Source: an uncultured delta proteobacterium
GTDB lineage: Bacteria > Desulfobacterota > Binatia > Binatales > Binataceae
Direction: 5' to 3'
NCBI GenBank assembly: GCA_963794325.1
Contig: CAWCDG010000004.1
Location: 960,001-1,024,000 of the forward strand
DNA length: 64,000 bases
Part shown: piece by piece, positions 33,529 to 57,884 of the stretch
Layout: each line of letters begins with the position of its first letter
Numbering within the stretch: position 1 is the first letter of the stretch
The notes under the pieces: generated by a model
Told to the model about the DNA's origin: nothing
The model's input: the letters and a program-made list of their open reading frames with translations, nothing else
The model's database searches: none
Position numbers and translations under genes: made by a program

Positions 33529-34542
33529 TCAGGTGAAATATGGCAAAAGGTGCCGATGCGCGTCGTCCATTGTTTGCTGCGGAGGCACGCCCGGCACTTC
33601 GAAAAGCACCGGCGCCGTCACCCCGGCCTCGATCAGGCGCGACAGGTTCTCGCGGCATCGCGCGGGGCTGCCGGCAATCGTGAACGTATCGAGCATCTCG
33701 TCGGTCACCATATCAGTAGGTACTTTTCCGCGCGCGAAACTCTCACCAAATTTGAGGATCGTTTCGGGCGGTAAGCCAGCCGCCGCGAATATCGGCGTGT
33801 TCGGCTGCGGCGCCATCAGCGAGATCATAATCGCGACGATCGGGCGCAAACGATCGCGCGCTGCGCGCTCATCTTCCGAAATCGACGAAAAGATATACGC
33901 ACCGACGCTGAATGAGCGCTCGTCGCGGCCCGACTTCGCAAGTCCGCGCCGGACATGCTCCATCGCGAATTTCACATAGGCCGGCGACGACATCACGCTG
34001 AGCAGCAGACCGTCGGCGACTTCGCCCGCCATCTCGCAATTCTTCGGCCCGAGCACGCCGAGATGAATCGGAATCTCGGCACGCACCGGCTTGAAGCTCA
34101 ATTTGATTCGCTCGGTCTGAAACACTTTCCCCGCGTTGGTGACTTCTTCACCGTGAAAGAATCGCCGGATGATATCGATCGTCTCGCGCATGGCTAAGGT
34201 CGGCTTGCGGTATGGAATTTTCAGGCGCCCTTCGATCCAGTCTTTCAATCCAGCGCCGATTCCGAGAATCGCCCGGCCGTCCGATACTTCGTCGAGCGCG
34301 GCGAATTCCATCGCGGTCAACGCCGGATGTCGCAGATAGGGATTCACGATGCCGAGGCCAATCTTGATCTTCGACGTACCGCACGCGACTGCCGACGCCA
34401 CCGTGAATGCGCCGCGGTAGAATGGATCCTCGGGAATCCAAAACGTCCCGATGCCCAGTTCCTCGGCGTGCCTGGCGTGCGCGGCGAACTCGCGCGTGTG
34501 CAGATTTTCGAAACCGACTCCGAACTCGCGAACTTTGGCCAT
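33529..34542 (-). CDS. LLM class flavin/F420-dependent oxidoreductase (Mer-like)
   Basis: GIVNPYLRHPA, LDEVSDGRAILGIGAG and GEVADG motifs. Confidence 0.87.
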   Translation of the reverse strand: MAKVREFGVGFENLHTREFAAHARHAEELGIGTFWIPEDPFYRGAFTVASAVACGTSKIKIGLGIVNPYLRHPALTAMEFAALDEVSDGRAILGIGAGLKDWIEGRLKIPYRKPTLAMRETIDIIRRFFHGEEVTNAGKVFQTERIKLSFKPVRAEIPIHLGVLGPKNCEMAGEVADGLLLSVMSSPAYVKFAMEHVRRGLAKSGRDERSFSVGAYIFSSISEDERAARDRLRPIVAIMISLMAPQPNTPIFAAAGLPPETILKFGESFARGKVPTDMVTDEMLDTFTIAGSPARCRENLSRLIEAGVTAPVLFEVPGVPPQQTMDDAHRHLLPYFT

Positions 34543-34546
34543 CGTC

Positions 34547-35014
34547 TTAAGCCTCGTTCTCGAACGCCATTCGCGGGCCCTGCGCGCACCACGAAAAATG
34601 GCAATGCCACATCTTCCAGACCGGCTTGCCGTGTTCGTCCTCGCGCACGTACACCTCGGTGCTGCGGAACTTGCCGCTGCCCGGCAGCGGCTGGCCGTCG
34701 GCGAGCGTGATAGTGAACGGCGCGTTGCACGAGAGCCATCCCATTTCGCCGCGGACTCGCACGCGCAGGTCTTCGTCCTCGCCGAGCGTCGCTTTCGCTT
34801 TGAACCTGGCGAGCCACTCCCACAGCGTCGCCCACTCTTCGATTCCGTCGTACGAAAAGCCGTTGAGGTTCCATCCGAAGAACCTGTCGCCGCCTACGAA
34901 CGCATCGCGCATCATCGGGATACTGCCCGTGCGATTCGCCTTCACCCAAATATTGTGCAGCCGCACGATCTCGTCGATATCCTTCTGCGGGCCTTCTCCG
35001 CGAATCTCCGTCAT
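34547..35014 (-). CDS. NTF2/SnoaL-like protein
   Basis: RSTEVY...WKMWHCHFS C-terminal pattern. Confidence 0.75.
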   Translation of the reverse strand: MTEIRGEGPQKDIDEIVRLHNIWVKANRTGSIPMMRDAFVGGDRFFGWNLNGFSYDGIEEWATLWEWLARFKAKATLGEDEDLRVRVRGEMGWLSCNAPFTITLADGQPLPGSGKFRSTEVYVREDEHGKPVWKMWHCHFSWCAQGPRMAFENEA

Positions 35015-35147
35015 CGCGATTCCTCCGTTGCGCTCGTTCGTACGCGACTAGCTATAGCCCAGTTCGCGCCAAATGTTCATGCTTGGCGAATTTCAGAAAA
35101 TCGGACTAAGTTGGCATCGAGAAGGACAAGGACAGGAGGATCGAGCT

Positions 35148-36008
35148 ATGAACCAGTTCAACGTCGGCGACGTCAAGATAACCCGGATTATCGAGAGCGA
35201 GTCGCCATGGCCCGGCACCTTCATCATGCCCGACGCCATTCCCGAGAACGTCAAGAAGGAAGCGGACTGGCTCTATCCGATTTTCTCAGACGAGAAGGGC
35301 AAGCTCCGCATGAGCATCCACGCACTGGTGATCGAATCGAAGGGCAAGCGCATCATCGTCGATACCTGCATCGGCAACGACAAGGTCCGCTCGAATCCGG
35401 TGTGGAGCAATCTCAAGCTGCCGTTCCTCAGCGATCTGGAAAAAGCGGGACACAGTGCCGACCAGATCGATCGCGTCGTCTGCACTCATCTGCACGTCGA
35501 TCACGTTGGATGGAACACCACGCTCAAAAACGGCAAGTGGGTGCCGACGTTCCCCAACGCGCGCTATCTGATTGGCGGCACCGAATGGGATTTCTGGTCG
35601 ACCTTCGACGGCAAGGACATGCGCGATCCGGTCGAGGATTCGGTGCGGCCGGTGGTCGAGGCGGGCGTTGCCGACCTGATCGATTCGAACTTTCGCATCA
35701 CCGACGAAGTATGGCTCGAGCCGTCGCCCGGACACACCCCGGGGCATCACAGCGTGCGGATTTCGTCGAAGGGACAGGACGCGGTCATCACCGGCGACCT
35801 GATGCATCATCCGATTCAGTGCAAATACCCGGAATGGGACGACGGTTTCGATTCCGACGGCGCGATGGCGAAGAAGACGCGGCGCGCGTTCTGCGAGAAA
35901 TACGCCGACACCAACGTCGTCGTGTTCGGGACGCATTTCGCGACGCCGTCGGCGGGAAATATTTCGAAGAAGGGCGACTCCTTCACGTTCACGGCGGTCA
36001 AACAATAA
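35148..36008 (+). CDS. MBL-fold metallo-hydrolase
   Basis: THLHVDHVGWN, PGHTPGH and GDLMHH motifs; AGGAGG SD. Confidence 0.92.
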   Translation: MNQFNVGDVKITRIIESESPWPGTFIMPDAIPENVKKEADWLYPIFSDEKGKLRMSIHALVIESKGKRIIVDTCIGNDKVRSNPVWSNLKLPFLSDLEKAGHSADQIDRVVCTHLHVDHVGWNTTLKNGKWVPTFPNARYLIGGTEWDFWSTFDGKDMRDPVEDSVRPVVEAGVADLIDSNFRITDEVWLEPSPGHTPGHHSVRISSKGQDAVITGDLMHHPIQCKYPEWDDGFDSDGAMAKKTRRAFCEKYADTNVVVFGTHFATPSAGNISKKGDSFTFTAVKQ

Positions 36009-36014
36009 AGCGTC

Positions 36015-36683
36015 ATGGGCGACGTCGCGCTTTCATTCGACAACGGGCCCGATCCGGCGGTGACGCCGATTGTGCTCGACGTGCTCGCGCGTCGCGGGGT
36101 AAAAGCGTCGTTCTTCGTCGTTGGCAAGAATCTCGCGTCACCTGATCGGATGAAGCTGGCGCAGCGTGCGGCCGCCGAGGGGCATCGAATCGGCAATCAC
36201 TCGTACACGCATCGCATCCCGCTCGGCGACGATCGGAACCCTGATGCGGCCGATTCGGAAATCGCAAAGACCGAACAGTTGATCGGCGCGCTGGCTGAAA
36301 CACCTAAACTGTTTCGGCCGTTCGGCGGCGGCGGAAAGATCGGACCGCATCTGCTGAGCCGCGCCGCCGTCGATCACCTGGTCGCCAACCGCTACACCTG
36401 CGTGTTGTGGAATTGCGTGCCGGAGGATTGGATTGATCAGGATGCGTGGGTTGATCGCGCGCTTCAAACTGCCTCGACGCAGCCGCACACGCTGGTCGTC
36501 ATGCACGACATCCTCCCGCGCGCGATGAGCCATCTCGATCGCTTCATCGGCGCGCTGGTGGACGCGGGACATCGCATGACCAACGAGTTCCCCGCCGAAT
36601 GTATTCCGATCGAGCAGGGCGACATCATCCGCGACATCTCCGGCTTCGTGTCGTCGCCTCGCGCGTCCGCCGAGGAAGGGTAA
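36015..36683 (+). CDS. Polysaccharide deacetylase (NodB-like)
   Basis: LSFDNGP, GNHSYTH, FRPFGG and MHD motifs. Confidence 0.88.
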   Translation: MGDVALSFDNGPDPAVTPIVLDVLARRGVKASFFVVGKNLASPDRMKLAQRAAAEGHRIGNHSYTHRIPLGDDRNPDAADSEIAKTEQLIGALAETPKLFRPFGGGGKIGPHLLSRAAVDHLVANRYTCVLWNCVPEDWIDQDAWVDRALQTASTQPHTLVVMHDILPRAMSHLDRFIGALVDAGHRMTNEFPAECIPIEQGDIIRDISGFVSSPRASAEEG

Positions 36684-36692
36684 ATCACTTTA

Positions 36693-36797
36693 TTTAATGT
36701 GAAACCCTCCGCGGGTTTCACGCTTCCGCGGCAGGGGTGACCCCTGCCCCCAGTGAGAAGCACGAAATGTTGAGGACAACCTTTCGCTCTCAGGTTC
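36693..36797. repeat. Family B modular repeat (inverted copy of 60484-60595)
   Basis: TGAAACCC..GGGTTTCA, GGCAGGGGTGACCCCTGCC and a GAAATGTTGAGGACAACCTTTCGCTCTCAGGTTC module. Confidence 0.88.
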
Positions 36798-36805
36798 TGG
36801 GTTTT

Positions 36806-36882
36806 GGTGGCACAGGCTTTAGCCTGTGATTTTCTGTTCCGCGCAAATCCAGGAAAGAATCACAGGCTTAAGCCTGTGCCAC
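36806..36882. repeat. REP doublet (REPIN-like), family C
   Basis: GTGGCACAGGCTTTAGCCTGTG...CACAGGCTTAAGCCTGTGCCAC; near-identical copy at 57808-57884. Confidence 0.9.
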
Positions 36883-36984
36883 TAAGAATCCCGACTACTG
36901 AGTACTCGTAGGGTCCCTGCTAGAACTTGGTAGCAGAAATAATTTGTCTTTGCGCGCGTTAATCTGTTTGGTACGCTTGTAGAT

Positions 36985-37476
36985 ATGAGTATGCATCTCC
37001 GCGCGCGCCGCTCGGTGGTTTCCGCGATTCTCAGTGCGATTGTTTTGTCGGTCACTGCGTCCGCCTTCGCGTTCGACATCGGGTCCCTGCTCAACAACAA
37101 GCCCAAAGAGCCGGATAAGTTCGCGATCATCCGGGTCGACAACCTTGCTTCGCTGATGAACGATCCGAACTCGCACGTAAATATCTATGACGCGAACGGA
37201 TGGGGCCTGCGTTCGACGGCCGGCGTGATTCCCGGCGCACACCTTCTCACCAGCGACGACAAGTACGACGTCGCAAAAGAGTTGCCCGCCGAAAAAAACG
37301 CCAAGCTCGTCTTCTACTGCGCCGATTTGCATTGAACGGCGTCGCATGAAGCCGCCCGGCGGGCGGAAGCAGCAGGTTACACCGACGTGAGCGTGATGAG
37401 CGACGGTATCGAAGGCTGGAAGCAAGCCGGCAAGCCAGTGGACTACCCGAAGCTCGAAGAATCGAAGAGCAGCTAG
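36985..37476 (+). CDS. Exported rhodanese-domain selenoprotein (UGA=Sec at 37333-37335, CxxxxU)
   Basis: Signal peptide (ASAFA), IPGA and LVFYCADLH-UGA-TASHEAARRAEAAGYTDVSVMSDGIEGWKQAGKPV; the rhodanese C-terminus continues in frame after the UGA up to TAG at 37474-37476. Confidence 0.8.
37352..37366 (+). promoter_or_regulatory. Candidate bacterial SECIS hairpin
   Basis: CCGCCC-GGC-GGGCGG; G-first apical loop starts 23 nt after the UGA. Confidence 0.6.
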
Positions 37477-37557
37477 AGTCTCCGCGAAATGCTGGCCCGT
37501 TTGTTCCGGGGCGGTTTGTAACATCTTGATCGGTAAGCAGGCATTGGAGATACGGCA

Positions 37558-38664
37558 ATGCCAACTGACGCGACCCCATCGACGGAAAATCAACCAGCTC
37601 CCCTGAGCGCATCCAGCACACTGGCGCGATTGGCGGGCGTCGGCGCTATCCTCCTGGCTGTCGTCGCCGGTTTTCTCTATTTGGGAGGCTGGTTCAATCC
37701 GCATGAACTAACACCTGCGCGGTTCGTCGACGGTTTTGAAGAGGTTTTCGGAATCCATTCCGGTTTCCGCCGCAATCATGCCAAAGGCCTGTGCGTCGGA
37801 GGTTTTTTCGATAGCAATGGCAATGGAACGCGCCTCTCGAAGGCCGCTCTGTTCCCGACCGGCCGCGTGCCGGTCATCGGCCGCTTCTCGCTCGGCGGCG
37901 GCAATCCCGATGTTGGCGATACTCCCGACGCGATCCGTGGCTTCGGACTTCTTTTTCGCCTGGACGACGGCGAACAGTGGCGGACGGCGATGATCAATCG
38001 TCCGGTATTTCCGTTCAACACCCCGCAGGCCTTTTACGGCAACTTGATTGCTTCGAAACCCGACCCCAACACGCATAAACCTGATCCCGAAAAAATGGCG
38101 GCGTTCGCGGCCAGCAATCCCGAATTTGTGCAGGCGGTAAAAATCATTCAAAGCCATCCGGCGTCGTCCGGTTTCGACAACAGCACTTTCAACGGCCTCA
38201 ATGCGTTCCATTTCATCAACGCGGCCGACGTCTCGACGCCGGTTCGATGGTCGATGGTGCCGATGGATGCGTTTAAGCCTGAAGACCCGGCTCAATCCGC
38301 CAATCCCAACAAGAATTATCTCTTCGACGATTTCATCGCACGGATTCATAGTGGGCCCGTGCAGTGGCGGCTAGTCCTCACGGTTGGGCAACCCGGCGAC
38401 CCTACCGACGATGCGACGATCCCATGGCCGGAAGATCGGCTGCAGGTCGACGCCGGTACGCTGACCCTCGACCAGGTTGAGCCCGAGGCGCCTGGAAACT
38501 GTCGCGACATCAACTTCGATCCATTGGTGTTGCCGGTCGGCATTGCACCGTCCGACGATCCTTTGCTCAGCGCTAGATCTGCAGTTTATTCGCAATCGTT
38601 TACCAGACGCGCGGGCGAGACCAAGGAGCCGAGCGCGATCACGCCTTCGGACGTGCAAAAGTGA
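37558..38664 (+). CDS. SrpA-type catalase-related peroxidase with N-terminal membrane anchor
   Basis: RRNHAKG, GRFS, FDPLVLP and ARSAVYSQS (heme Tyr) motifs. Confidence 0.9.
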   Translation: MPTDATPSTENQPAPLSASSTLARLAGVGAILLAVVAGFLYLGGWFNPHELTPARFVDGFEEVFGIHSGFRRNHAKGLCVGGFFDSNGNGTRLSKAALFPTGRVPVIGRFSLGGGNPDVGDTPDAIRGFGLLFRLDDGEQWRTAMINRPVFPFNTPQAFYGNLIASKPDPNTHKPDPEKMAAFAASNPEFVQAVKIIQSHPASSGFDNSTFNGLNAFHFINAADVSTPVRWSMVPMDAFKPEDPAQSANPNKNYLFDDFIARIHSGPVQWRLVLTVGQPGDPTDDATIPWPEDRLQVDAGTLTLDQVEPEAPGNCRDINFDPLVLPVGIAPSDDPLLSARSAVYSQSFTRRAGETKEPSAITPSDVQK

Positions 38665-39218
38665 GCGTCAGGATGACGACGAACCCGCAGCAATTCCCGG
38701 TTTCCATGCGGATTCTTCACTGGCTGATGGCGGCGATGGTGCTGATCATGCTCGGCATCGGTGTAGCCATGGTGGCGTCACTCGCCGATTACCATCGGCT
38801 GGTAGCAATCCATCGCCCGGTGGGGATCCTGATCCTGATTTTAGTGATGATCCGGTTCGTGAACCGGCGCTTCAGCACCCTGCCCCCTTTTCCTGCGTCG
38901 ATGTCATCTCAGGAGCGCTTCATTGCACACGCGTCGGAAATATTGCTGTACACATTGCTGTTGGTGCAGCCTCTGGTCGGCTGGGGGATGTTATCCGCGG
39001 CGCGCTTTCCGATCGTCCTGTATGGGCCGCTGCATCTTTTCCCCATCCTTCCGCATAGCGTGATGTTGTACGCGGTATTGCGGAAGGCGCACACGATTCT
39101 CGCCTACCTCTTATTCCTCACGTTCATCGCCCATTTTGGAGCTGTACTGTTTCACACGCTGGTCTTGCGGGATCGGTTGTTCAGCCGCATGGCGCCTTAT
39201 AGGGTCCCCGCGCGCTAG
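38661..39218 (+). CDS. Cytochrome b561 (YceJ-like)
   Basis: RILHWLMA and conserved His residues in 4 TM helices; overlaps the catalase stop. Confidence 0.88.
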   Translation: MSVRMTTNPQQFPVSMRILHWLMAAMVLIMLGIGVAMVASLADYHRLVAIHRPVGILILILVMIRFVNRRFSTLPPFPASMSSQERFIAHASEILLYTLLLVQPLVGWGMLSAARFPIVLYGPLHLFPILPHSVMLYAVLRKAHTILAYLLFLTFIAHFGAVLFHTLVLRDRLFSRMAPYRVPAR

Positions 39219-39384
39219 CGAGTTTCTGCAATACGGCACTCTACTCACTGTCGATGGCAACCGCGCATCAAAGCTTTGCGGGACTAATACTCTCCTTCAA
39301 GGTTCGAATCTCGGCAAATAGAATTGAGTCGCCCGCTTCGGGACTCCTCGCGCCGGCCGCAGCTTGATGCCATATAGTGTCGGC

Positions 39385-41172
39385 GTGCCGCGCGATACTG
39401 CTATCTCAGAATCCAATCCAACTCTGCGCGAGCTGACGCCGCGGAGTATCGCGCTCGGCATCGCGCTCGCGCTGATTCTCGGCGCGGCGAATGCTTACCT
39501 CGGCCTGTATGCGGGCCTGACCGTGTCCGCAAGCATCCCGGCCGCTGTTATCTCGATGGCGATACTGCGGATTCTCGGCGGCTCGACCATCCTCGAGAAC
39601 AACGTCGTGCAGACAATTGCGTCGGCAGGCGAGGCGGTCGCAGCGGGCGCGATTTTCACGTTCCCGGCGCTGCTGATTCTTGGCGGCGTCCGGACGCTGC
39701 CGTACGTCGAAGTGACGGCGCTGTGCGTCGTCGGCGCGACGATGGGCTCGTTGCTCGTCGTGTTCCTGCGCCGCGCGTATATCGTCGAGGAACGGCTGCC
39801 GTTTCCCGAAGGCGTCGCCTGCGCCGAGGTCCTTCGCGCCGGCGATGCACAAGCGAATGTTCGTCCGCTGGTAGTCGGCGGATTAATTTCGGCGGCTCTC
39901 AAAGCGCTTCAGGACGTCGCGGGAATTATTCCCGGTGCGGTGTCAGGCGCGCGATGGATCGGCAGCGCGGCGGTCGCGGGGTCGCTCGACATTTCGGCGG
40001 CGCTGCTCGGCGTCGGCTACATAATAGGAATCAGGATCGCGGCGCTGGTATTCGCCGGCGGCGCATTCGCGTGGCTGGTCGCGATTCCTGCGCTCACCGC
40101 ATTTCACGTTGGCGGAACGGGCGACGCCGCGACGACTGCGCAGCAACTTTGGAGCGGGCAGGTGCGGTATCTCGGCGTCGGCGCGATGCTGACCGGCGGA
40201 GTCGTGACGCTATGGAAGTTGCGCACGCGCATCGCGTCGGCGATCGCCGACAGCGTGCGCATCGTGCGCTCGACCCAGACCGTCGCAACCGCGCGCGAGG
40301 ACACCGACCTTTCGGCCCGAGCGGTGCTGACCGCGGTCGCGCTTTGCGTGCCGGTAATCTTCGCCATCTGCCTGGGGCTCAGCGGGAATGTGGCACTGAG
40401 CGCGGCGCTCGCGATCCTGCTGACGCTGATCTGTTTCTTCGCGACGGCGATCGCCGGGTACCTGACCGGAATAGTCGGCGCGTCGAACAATCCGGTGTCG
40501 GGCGTGACCGTGATCGTATTGCTCGCCGTCGCGCTATTTCTCAAATTGGTCGGCGTATCGCAAAGCGTCGGGCCGCAACTGGCGATTCTCTCCGGCGCGA
40601 TCGTGTGCACGGCGGCTGCGATGGCGGGTGATTCGACGCATGACCTCGCGACCGGATATCACGTCGGGGCGACGCCGCGCTCGCTCGAAATCGGCGTGCT
40701 GATTGGCGCGATCGCGTCGTCATTCGTGATGGCGCCGATTCTGAACCTGCTGATCGCCGGCTACGGAATCGCGGGCACTCCGACCGCGCGGGCCGGCGCG
40801 CTCGCCGCTCCGCAAGCATTCCTGATGGCGAAAGTGACGCAGGGAGTTTTCCACGGCGGATTGCCGCTCGGAACGATCGCAACCGGCGCAGCTCTCGCGG
40901 CGATTCTCGGCTTCATCGATCGCTACCTCGAACAAATCGGAGCGAAGTGGCGCACGCCTATCATGCCCGCCGCGATCGGTCTCTACCTTCCGTTCGGACT
41001 GAGCGTAACGATTTTTATAGGCGCGCTCGCGCATTCGCTGTTCGGACCCGACGAGCACGCCGAGAGCGGACCGGGCATCCTGCTCGCAGCCGGTCTGGTA
41101 GCCGGCGAGGCCCTGATGGGCGTCGCCAGCGGAGCAATGGTCACGGCGGGAATCAAGCTCCCGATTTTCTGA
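39385..41172 (+). CDS. OPT family oligopeptide transporter
   Basis: YLGLYAGLTVSASIPAAV, LPFPEGVAC, NNPVSG and APQAFLM motifs; start uncertain. Confidence 0.9.
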   Translation: MPRDTAISESNPTLRELTPRSIALGIALALILGAANAYLGLYAGLTVSASIPAAVISMAILRILGGSTILENNVVQTIASAGEAVAAGAIFTFPALLILGGVRTLPYVEVTALCVVGATMGSLLVVFLRRAYIVEERLPFPEGVACAEVLRAGDAQANVRPLVVGGLISAALKALQDVAGIIPGAVSGARWIGSAAVAGSLDISAALLGVGYIIGIRIAALVFAGGAFAWLVAIPALTAFHVGGTGDAATTAQQLWSGQVRYLGVGAMLTGGVVTLWKLRTRIASAIADSVRIVRSTQTVATAREDTDLSARAVLTAVALCVPVIFAICLGLSGNVALSAALAILLTLICFFATAIAGYLTGIVGASNNPVSGVTVIVLLAVALFLKLVGVSQSVGPQLAILSGAIVCTAAAMAGDSTHDLATGYHVGATPRSLEIGVLIGAIASSFVMAPILNLLIAGYGIAGTPTARAGALAAPQAFLMAKVTQGVFHGGLPLGTIATGAALAAILGFIDRYLEQIGAKWRTPIMPAAIGLYLPFGLSVTIFIGALAHSLFGPDEHAESGPGILLAAGLVAGEALMGVASGAMVTAGIKLPIF

Positions 41173-57807: not shown

Positions 57808-57884
57808 GGTGGCACAGGCTTTAGCCTGTGATTTTCTGGTCCCTGCAAATCCGGGAAAGAATCACAGGCTGAAGCCTGTGCCAC
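57808..57884. repeat. REP doublet, family C
   Basis: Near-identical to 36806-36882, including the spacer. Confidence 0.9.

Follow-up and report, generated by a model that had tools for sequence, protein, structure and literature searches.

The window analysed here is a 64,000-nucleotide stretch of the genome of an uncultured delta proteobacterium of the Binataceae (GenBank assembly GCA_963794325.1, contig CAWCDG010000004.1, positions 960,001 to 1,024,000 of the forward strand), and it contains a small rhodanese gene whose in-frame TGA is almost certainly read as selenocysteine (Sec), leaving intact a gene for a putatively exported rhodanese. The open reading frame (ORF) at 36985..37335 opens with the ATG at 36985 and closes at TGA 37333-37335, right behind the residues ...LVFYCADLH. 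Past this codon, the same frame is open for a further 46 codons (TASHEAARRAEAAGYTDVSVMSDGIEGWKQAGKPV...) up to a TAG at 37474-37476, and the product is 163 residues long with the TGA read through, compared to 116 residues for the unread ORF. The Pfam Rhodanese profile (PF00581) matches the read-through protein over residues 52-148, equivalent to profile positions 3-102 of 102, with 42.4 bits against a gathering score of 22.2. Because the match spans these residues, the 116-residue ORF is without about the last third of the rhodanese domain. An earlier interpretation made from the DNA letters alone (the sequence-only reading) had the ORF halting at this TGA, five residues beyond the active-site cysteine, and had taken the 46-codon continuation for a rhodanese C-terminus. 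The coordinates were verified, and the continuation completes the Pfam profile to its last position.

Relatives of the gene were found by scanning one genome per species across GTDB, and 80 public loci were kept out of the 126 relatives recovered. Placement by tblastn of the 90 homologous copies at these loci gave TGA at the column of residue 117 in 64 copies and cysteine in 26, with no other residue in any of them (0/90), and the cysteine at position 112 was invariant (90/90). A stricter count by regular expression, covering 79 of the 80 loci, returned 64 TGA, 15 TGC and 5 TGT codons. The suggestion that came with the sequence-only reading, to see what homologues carry at residue 117, thus has its answer in a column made up solely of Cys or TGA. 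Among 21 copies from 20 fetched loci, TGA stood at the same column in 18 and Cys in three, for example FYCADPQC-TASHEAA, and TGA-bearing copies persist as far out as 42-49% protein identity. At the level of the genus, matches at E <= 1e-20 were present in 37 of 47 species genomes, and 34 of the 39 matches had the in-frame TGA while five were without it. This tally takes in two unpublished genomes (G019 and G024), on neither of which any result depends, and it shares genomes with the 80-locus count, hence the two counts are not independent. With TGA in 64/90 copies and Cys in 26/90, the arrangement of a TGA followed by an open frame is beyond chance.

Selection on the protein was compared on the two sides of the TGA in 27 close orthologs (351 pairs). 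The ratio of non-synonymous to synonymous substitution rates (dN/dS) was 0.093 for the 70 codons before the TGA (-70 to -1) and 0.092 for codons +12 to +40, and this equality indicates that the downstream region is translated. The genome, a draft of 10 contigs estimated as 85% complete, encodes selA (569.7 bits), selB (375.3 bits) and selD (376.9 bits), each above its curated cut-off, as well as a tRNA-Sec scored at 72.4 bits, also above cut-off, which ARAGORN reports as tRNA-SeC with anticodon tca. The Sec genes that the sequence-only reading had proposed to look for, selA, selB, selD and the tRNA-Sec gene (selC), are therefore all present. On contig C4 of the genome, selD (C4:1158546-1159472) adjoins selB (C4:1159677-1161572) and has one in-frame TGA of its own, and its product is presumably a Sec-containing selenophosphate synthetase. 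TGA is the ordinary terminator of the neighbouring luciferase-like (LLM), catalase-like and oligopeptide transporter (OPT) genes, and because these genes end with TGA the codon is not globally reassigned.

Bacterial Sec insertion sequence (SECIS) elements are stem-loops just 3′ of the UGA with a G in the apical loop, and spacing rules for them are those of bSECISearch. The hairpin at 37352-37366 (CCGCCC-GGC-GGGCGG) agrees with this description, with a stem of six base pairs, all G+C, a loop of GGC (GUC in some copies) and a start 16 nt past the UGA; it lies where the sequence-only reading had located it, with its first loop base the 23rd after the UGA. All six pairs were in register in 60 of 63 TGA copies and in 2 of 20 Cys copies, a comparison from which one TGA copy was dropped as its contig ends too soon and in which the Cys set comprises the 20 copies of 26 found by regular expression. 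The 17-mers at this position fell into 13 distinct sequences among the 63 Sec copies and 19 among the 20 Cys copies. In a 64-row alignment (A2), 95.1% of the hairpin cells were paired, versus 30-66% when the 3′ partner was slid by one to three columns, and the changes consisted of one compensatory CG to GC exchange (L102) and four wobble pairs. Synonymous diversity over codons +4 to +11 was about zero, whereas flanking four-fold degenerate codons vary, and the synonymous substitution rate of the hairpin codons (dS = 0.127) was about five-fold lower than elsewhere in the gene (0.63-0.66; 27 orthologs). Rfam gave no match at the hairpin. The claim of a 163-residue Sec protein thus draws support from the Cys/TGA-only column, the Sec machinery and the Sec-specific constraint on the hairpin.

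Sequence data from other sources also cross the TGA. Contigs from two soil DNA runs, belonging to different studies, and from two metatranscriptome libraries were placed on 36900-37600 and span the codon, and contigs from both RNA libraries bridge it, extending over 31 letters to either side of the codon (X15 record 14, 37246-37368; X16 record 17, 37257-37419). No difference at 37333-37335, where read mapping had been proposed, was seen among the 40 listed of 133 in the contig comparison, and the contigs crossing the TGA weakly support the read-through reading. Shares below 0.2 in sequencing runs (X6-X20) were not taken as evidence of habitat. At 37331-37333, RNA-library contigs of divergent relatives, with FYCHNT.., FYCANT.. 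or FYCANSL upstream, begin their exact match to the window at the TGA, a pattern that fits nucleotide conservation starting at the UGA and the hairpin while the preceding codons differ.

The AlphaFold model of the read-through protein, built with a 16-row alignment, had a mean predicted local distance difference test score (pLDDT) of 77.3, with means of 69-94 for 10-residue blocks over residues 41-150. A helix (119-129), a strand (134-138) and a further helix (141-147) all lie C-terminal to U117 and are integral to the modelled fold. The best Foldseek matches were single-domain rhodaneses, among them 6mxv, 3mzz, YgaP and the periplasmic polysulfide-sulfur transferase Sud. The closest solved relative by sequence is E. 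coli YgaP, whose loop C-Q-A-G-K-R-T aligns with C112-A-D-L-H-U117-T, and this alignment identifies Cys112 as the catalytic cysteine and Sec as the sixth loop residue, in the place of an arginine. Within residues 1-29, a basic stretch is followed by a hydrophobic core and, ahead of F30, by an A-x-A site (A-F-A), with similar N-termini in relatives, and residues 6-27 form a detached, low-confidence helix in the model (pLDDT about 47-53). The N-terminal RR pair is absent from distant members, and the profile scan of the read-through protein gave no match to the twin-arginine translocation (Tat) signal model at E <= 0.01. From this N-terminal pattern, the protein is predicted to be exported by a putative signal peptide and would act outside the cytoplasm.

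A profile search of 1.84 billion cluster representatives returned 4595 proteins at E <= 1e-3, of which 152 reach E <= 1e-30. The motif [F/V/A][Y/F/H]-C-x4-C was present in 146 of the 149 best representatives fetched, twice in 12 of them, and the remaining three are cut at the motif. Because 146/149 wider relatives share this motif, the Sec proteins are placed within a large Cys-x4-Cys rhodanese clade that has no name, as one of its branches; of 15 clade members tested, none came up to any NCBIfam cut-off. This Sec branch is narrow, with 3 of 401 genomes in a phylum-wide sample matching at E <= 1e-15, all of the same family, and the public loci are mostly metagenome-assembled genomes of Candidatus Binatus or Binataceae. 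Database records of the branch are largely truncated, as the sequence-only reading had expected of standard annotation: in 109 of the 120 best relatives the sequence stops exactly four residues past the Cys, giving fragments of 114-154 residues, and all 11 full-length entries among the 120 have FYC-x4-C. Sec and Cys states are interleaved in an unrooted tree of 84 copies, which counts changes without giving their direction, and its well-supported branches force at least 10 changes. A Sec and a Cys copy lie in tandem at eight loci (L074, L087, L089, L094, L103, L107, L115 and L129), and such copies may be selenium-replete and selenium-poor isoforms. The tandem Sec/Cys pair occurs likewise in genomes G023 and G232, and two Cys copies are present in L111 and L112.

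Rhodanese-domain selenoproteins are known, as the sequence-only reading had cautioned with regard to novelty. Table 1 of a 2026 review lists five forms, UxxS, UxxG, CxU (NF041203), a second UxxG, and TsoB with UxxxxU (NF045694) (PMC13188914); none of these has CxxxxU, and the motif string is absent from the accessible part of the review. Literature searches for CxxxxU gave no match, and those for Binat with selenocysteine gave none on this rhodanese as judged by title and the start of the abstract, with the supplements of large surveys lying outside the search. The Cys-x4-Sec rhodanese is outside every curated family tested, and an earlier listing in survey supplements is possible.

The fifth of these forms, TsoB (NF045694), was the best NCBIfam match, with residues 91-160 aligned to profile positions 95-164 at 45.8 bits against a cut-off of 805. 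The source paper for TsoB is reportedly Haft and Tolstoy 2025, and in the literature searched TsoB came up as a selenoprotein in the 2026 review alone. The two share a rhodanese domain, two redox-type residues spaced by four, Sec as the second of these residues and an extracytoplasmic location, which for the present protein is a prediction. They differ in that TsoB is a rhodanese/DsbD-like fusion of about 572 residues with two Sec (UxxxxU), whereas this protein has 163 residues, no DsbD part and one Sec (CxxxxU), and in that this gene is not in a Tso operon, unlike TsoB. Among 41 related genomes, none had a TsoB match above cut-off, and the strong matches that were considered as TsoB candidates proved to be ordinary DsbD proteins. 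By analogy, the protein would work most like the rhodanese domain of TsoB in stand-alone form.

The LYCAU type (form 3, NF041203), as it appears in the accessible part of the review, is likewise a small single-domain rhodanese in which the catalytic Cys is retained and followed at a short distance by Sec (PMC13188914), but its Sec is at +2 rather than +5, and with 34.3 bits against a cut-off of 115 the present protein is not a member. Forms 1, 2 and 4 (UxxS and UxxG; PF00581) are likewise Sec-decoded rhodanese-domain proteins, as far as they are covered in the portions of the two sources available (PMC13188914, PMC1088965), and a 'rhodanese-related sulfurtransferase' is listed in the Sargasso Sea selenoprotein set (PMC1088965 Table). 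Judged by the motifs given there, with U first, Sec apparently replaces the catalytic Cys in these three forms, whereas in this protein the catalytic Cys remains and Sec comes as a second loop residue. Members of the unnamed FYC-x4-C clade, mostly of about 150 residues and including Cys paralogs of this gene, have in common with it the FYC-x4-C, A-S-H and A-A-x-R-A signature, with Cys in place of U117. Among curated Cys-type models, the one for the pyrroloquinoline quinone (PQQ)-associated CXXCW motif protein (TIGR03865) comes closest, at 39.7 bits against 128.05, and there is no W after the second position (U-T-A-S). No TIGR03865 member was found in the 41 relatives or the control genomes, the CXXCW comparison being one of hidden Markov model score alone. 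The solved rhodaneses YgaP (2moi, 5hbl), Wolinella Sud (1qxn) and the Francisella rhodanese-like protein 6mxv have the same fold and catalytic Cys position at 13-25% identity, but their loops are without a second Cys or Sec, and YgaP has Arg where this protein has Sec. One rhodanese match with two apparent TGA codons, located in the same genome as the window (L046, C7:205525-205956), was rejected as a selenoprotein; it is a MoeB/ThiF-rhodanese fusion with the loop CASGTRS, and its TGAs lie upstream of the real start.

The coordinates of the gene, its parts and the genes downstream are collected in Table 1. An OPT gene lies less than 700 nt downstream of the rhodanese on the same strand in 53 of the 80 loci and within 3 kb in four more, with four loci too short to tell, and this adjacency spans 47-94% identity. 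In this window, the catalase-related and cytochrome b561 genes separate the rhodanese from the OPT gene. They stand beside the rhodanese in no other locus compared, and the two look like a joint insertion, specific to this lineage, between otherwise conserved rhodanese and OPT neighbours. No second conserved partner was found at the loci without OPT, where the neighbours include CoaBC, luciferase-like oxidoreductases, CoA-transferases, an amidohydrolase and MoxR.

Table 1 Features of the rhodanese selenoprotein gene and its downstream neighbours in the window
Feature	Coordinates	Strand	Evidence
Complete selenoprotein coding sequence, 163 codons with U117, plus TAG stop	36985..37476	+	Frame, Pfam Rhodanese, dN/dS
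Putative signal peptide, residues 1-29 (MSMHLRARRSVVSAILSAIVLSVTASAFA, then FD), predicted	36985..37071	+	Sequence pattern
Cys112 codon (TGC), rhodanese catalytic Cys, first residue of the active-site loop	37318..37320	+	YgaP alignment; invariant in 90/90 copies
UGA read as selenocysteine U117, residue 6 of the loop C-A-D-L-H-U	37333..37335	+	TGA 64/90, Cys 26/90; Sec machinery
SECIS-like hairpin, stem 37352-57 paired with 37361-66, loop GGC 37358-60	37352..37366	+	Sec-versus-Cys copy contrast, pairing, dS
True stop codon TAG	37474..37476	+	Reading frame
Catalase-related gene (37558-38664; 368 aa, partial PF00199) and overlapping cytochrome b561 gene (38661-39218)	37558..39218	+	Pfam
OPT-family oligopeptide transporter gene	39364..41172	+	TIGR00733, 489.6 bits versus cut-off 182.5

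The explanation that we favour, with a probability of roughly 0.88, is the decoding of UGA as Sec in a 163-residue, single-domain, presumably exported rhodanese that would work through Cys112 and Sec117. A genuine rhodanese selenoprotein is supported, if unproven, the chemical insertion of Sec resting on comparison. The hairpin starting 16 nt after the UGA would recruit SelB with Sec-tRNA(Sec), as the comparison of copies suggests, and translation would then run through the last helix, strand and helix of the fold to the TAG at 37474-76. The N-terminal signal peptide would carry the protein out of the cytoplasm. Cys112 could then act as the nucleophile toward a substrate of the sulfur or disulfide type, and Sec117, located five residues further along the loop, could serve as the resolving or relay residue via an intraloop selenenylsulfide, making the domain a redox-active Cys/Sec pair instead of a plain persulfide carrier. 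Re-reduction may come from a DsbD/CcdA-type system as the electron source, which is plausible because TsoB joins its rhodanese domain to a DsbD-like electron conduit and because a homolog of DsbD is encoded in the genome (C4:522374-523528, scoring 411 bits against the DsbD portion of the TsoB model). As the most tentative step, the enzyme might process a thiol- or sulfur-bearing, peptide-like compound that is then imported by the OPT transporter, a proposal made because an OPT gene usually follows directly.

Several observations weigh against parts of this account. The 60-nt fold containing the hairpin has an energy of -20.9 kcal/mol and z = -0.38, with 64 of 200 shuffled sequences at least as stable; the hairpin is short (6 bp with a 3-nt loop), and the coding of Ala-Ala-Arg-Arg-Ala in a GC-rich genome tends to yield GC palindromes readily. 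An identical hairpin is retained in 2 of 20 Cys copies, and covariation is minimal, with one compensatory change and with 10 of 500 shuffles matching the observed scores; it is almost absent because the stem hardly varies. Given the unremarkable fold energy, the sparse covariation and the expectation of GC palindromes, the evidence for the hairpin is the contrast between Sec and Cys copies and not its stability. The RNA-library contigs are 85-99% alike to the window, the many pieces at 85-95% come from relatives, and DNA carry-over in the RNA libraries is possible. The proposed Cys-Sec chemistry is drawn from general knowledge of rhodanese loops and not from a measurement of coordinates. Finally, the OPT gene is absent from 19 of the 80 loci despite room for it, and the neighbours there are heterogeneous.

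The strongest competitor to this account accepts the Sec residue and questions its role. The protein could be an ordinary periplasmic thiosulfate or persulfide sulfurtransferase of the PspE or Sud type, in which Sec117 replaces a persulfide-stabilising loop residue and no Cys-Sec couple forms, the OPT adjacency being coincidental. We regard this as unlikely, even though single-domain sulfurtransferases such as Sud (1qxn) and YgaP have the same fold and catalytic Cys, and U117 aligns with the Arg of the YgaP CQAGKRT loop, a position that faces the active site. The second position is Cys or Sec in 90/90 copies and Cys in 146/149 wider relatives, which is typical of a redox pair, and among curated models the closest is that of TsoB, whose UxxxxU domain is joined to a redox module resembling DsbD. 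The recurrence of the OPT adjacency in 53/80 loci across 47-94% identity also argues against coincidence.

The remaining alternatives concern the codon itself. A near-cognate or suppressor tRNA, for example one carrying Trp or Cys, could read the UGA in place of the Sec pathway, and nothing in the comparison chemically separates Sec from another inserted residue; we nevertheless consider this very improbable, since the sense codons at column 117 all specify Cys (26/26), the classic Sec signature, conservation of the hairpin at the SECIS position is specific to TGA copies, the full Sec machinery is present with an in-frame TGA in selD itself, and TGA ends other genes. That the TGA is a true stop, yielding a truncated 116-residue protein or a pseudogene with a decaying remnant downstream, has a slim chance at best. 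The end of 109/120 best database relatives four residues after the Cys agrees with it, as gene callers treat TGA in this way, and so does the normal termination of neighbouring genes with TGA. However, purifying selection is equal past the TGA (dN/dS 0.092 versus 0.093), the TGA is found in 64 copies as far as 42-49% identity with Cys as the sole alternative, and the truncated product would be short of one third of the fold. That an error in sequencing or assembly turned a TGC or TGT into TGA is conceivable in a draft genome of 10 contigs and 85% completeness, but can be set aside, as the same TGA recurs in dozens of independently assembled genomes and the codon is crossed by contigs from two DNA runs and two RNA libraries with no difference there among the 40 listed of 133.

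Under the decoding of UGA as Sec117, the active-site loop would carry Sec in addition to the retained catalytic Cys, unlike the forms in which Cys is replaced, and this points to a Cys-Sec redox couple in a sulfurtransferase fold. As a stand-alone domain, the protein would be a tractable counterpart to the rhodanese domain found in TsoB, a membrane fusion, and its gene is in most sampled species (37/47) of a soil genus that is widespread and uncultured. With a family model of its own, many truncated records would be corrected and the soil selenoproteome would gain a family, and the interleaved Sec and Cys copies, with eight tandem pairs and at least 10 changes of state, would provide a natural data set on Sec/Cys exchange.

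OPT transporters are described, in the accessible parts of two sources, as carrying peptides, glutathione and metal chelates (PMC3061005, PMC12831333). A more speculative extension, which we hold to be rather doubtful, is that the rhodanese and the OPT transporter form an unrecognised selenium-dependent uptake module of soil Binataceae, in which an oxidised thiol-peptide, for instance a disulfide, persulfide or selenotrisulfide of the glutathione type, would be reduced by the selenoenzyme in the periplasm, or relieved there of sulfane sulfur (or selenium), and the OPT transporter would import the product. If true, this would supply the first defined physiological partner for bacterial OPT transporters.

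Further features were noted upstream of the rhodanese gene. A luciferase-like (LLM-class) gene lies directly upstream on the same strand in a number of related loci (L053, L058, L063, L065, L069, L079, L081, L086-L094, L100, L107, L115 and L118) and is not at that place in this window. A 564-residue ORF at 34451-36145 is without a Pfam or NCBIfam match, and many related loci have a counterpart of it, at 46-85% identity, upstream of the deacetylase gene. In the window, this ORF overlaps both the beginning of a polysaccharide deacetylase ORF (36015) and the 5′ end of a luciferase-like gene that lies on the opposite strand. A palindrome of about 78 nt (36807-36884), which precedes the rhodanese start by about 100 nt, is made up of two inverted copies of CACAGGCTTNAGCCTGTG, which has 8 matches in the window versus 0.02 expected, and the palindrome recurs 21 kb off at 57813-57880. 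Rfam returned only sub-threshold matches to microRNA-precursor families for this region (about 36786-36903), and the palindrome looks like a repeat of the repetitive extragenic palindromic (REP) or miniature inverted-repeat transposable element (MITE) kind.

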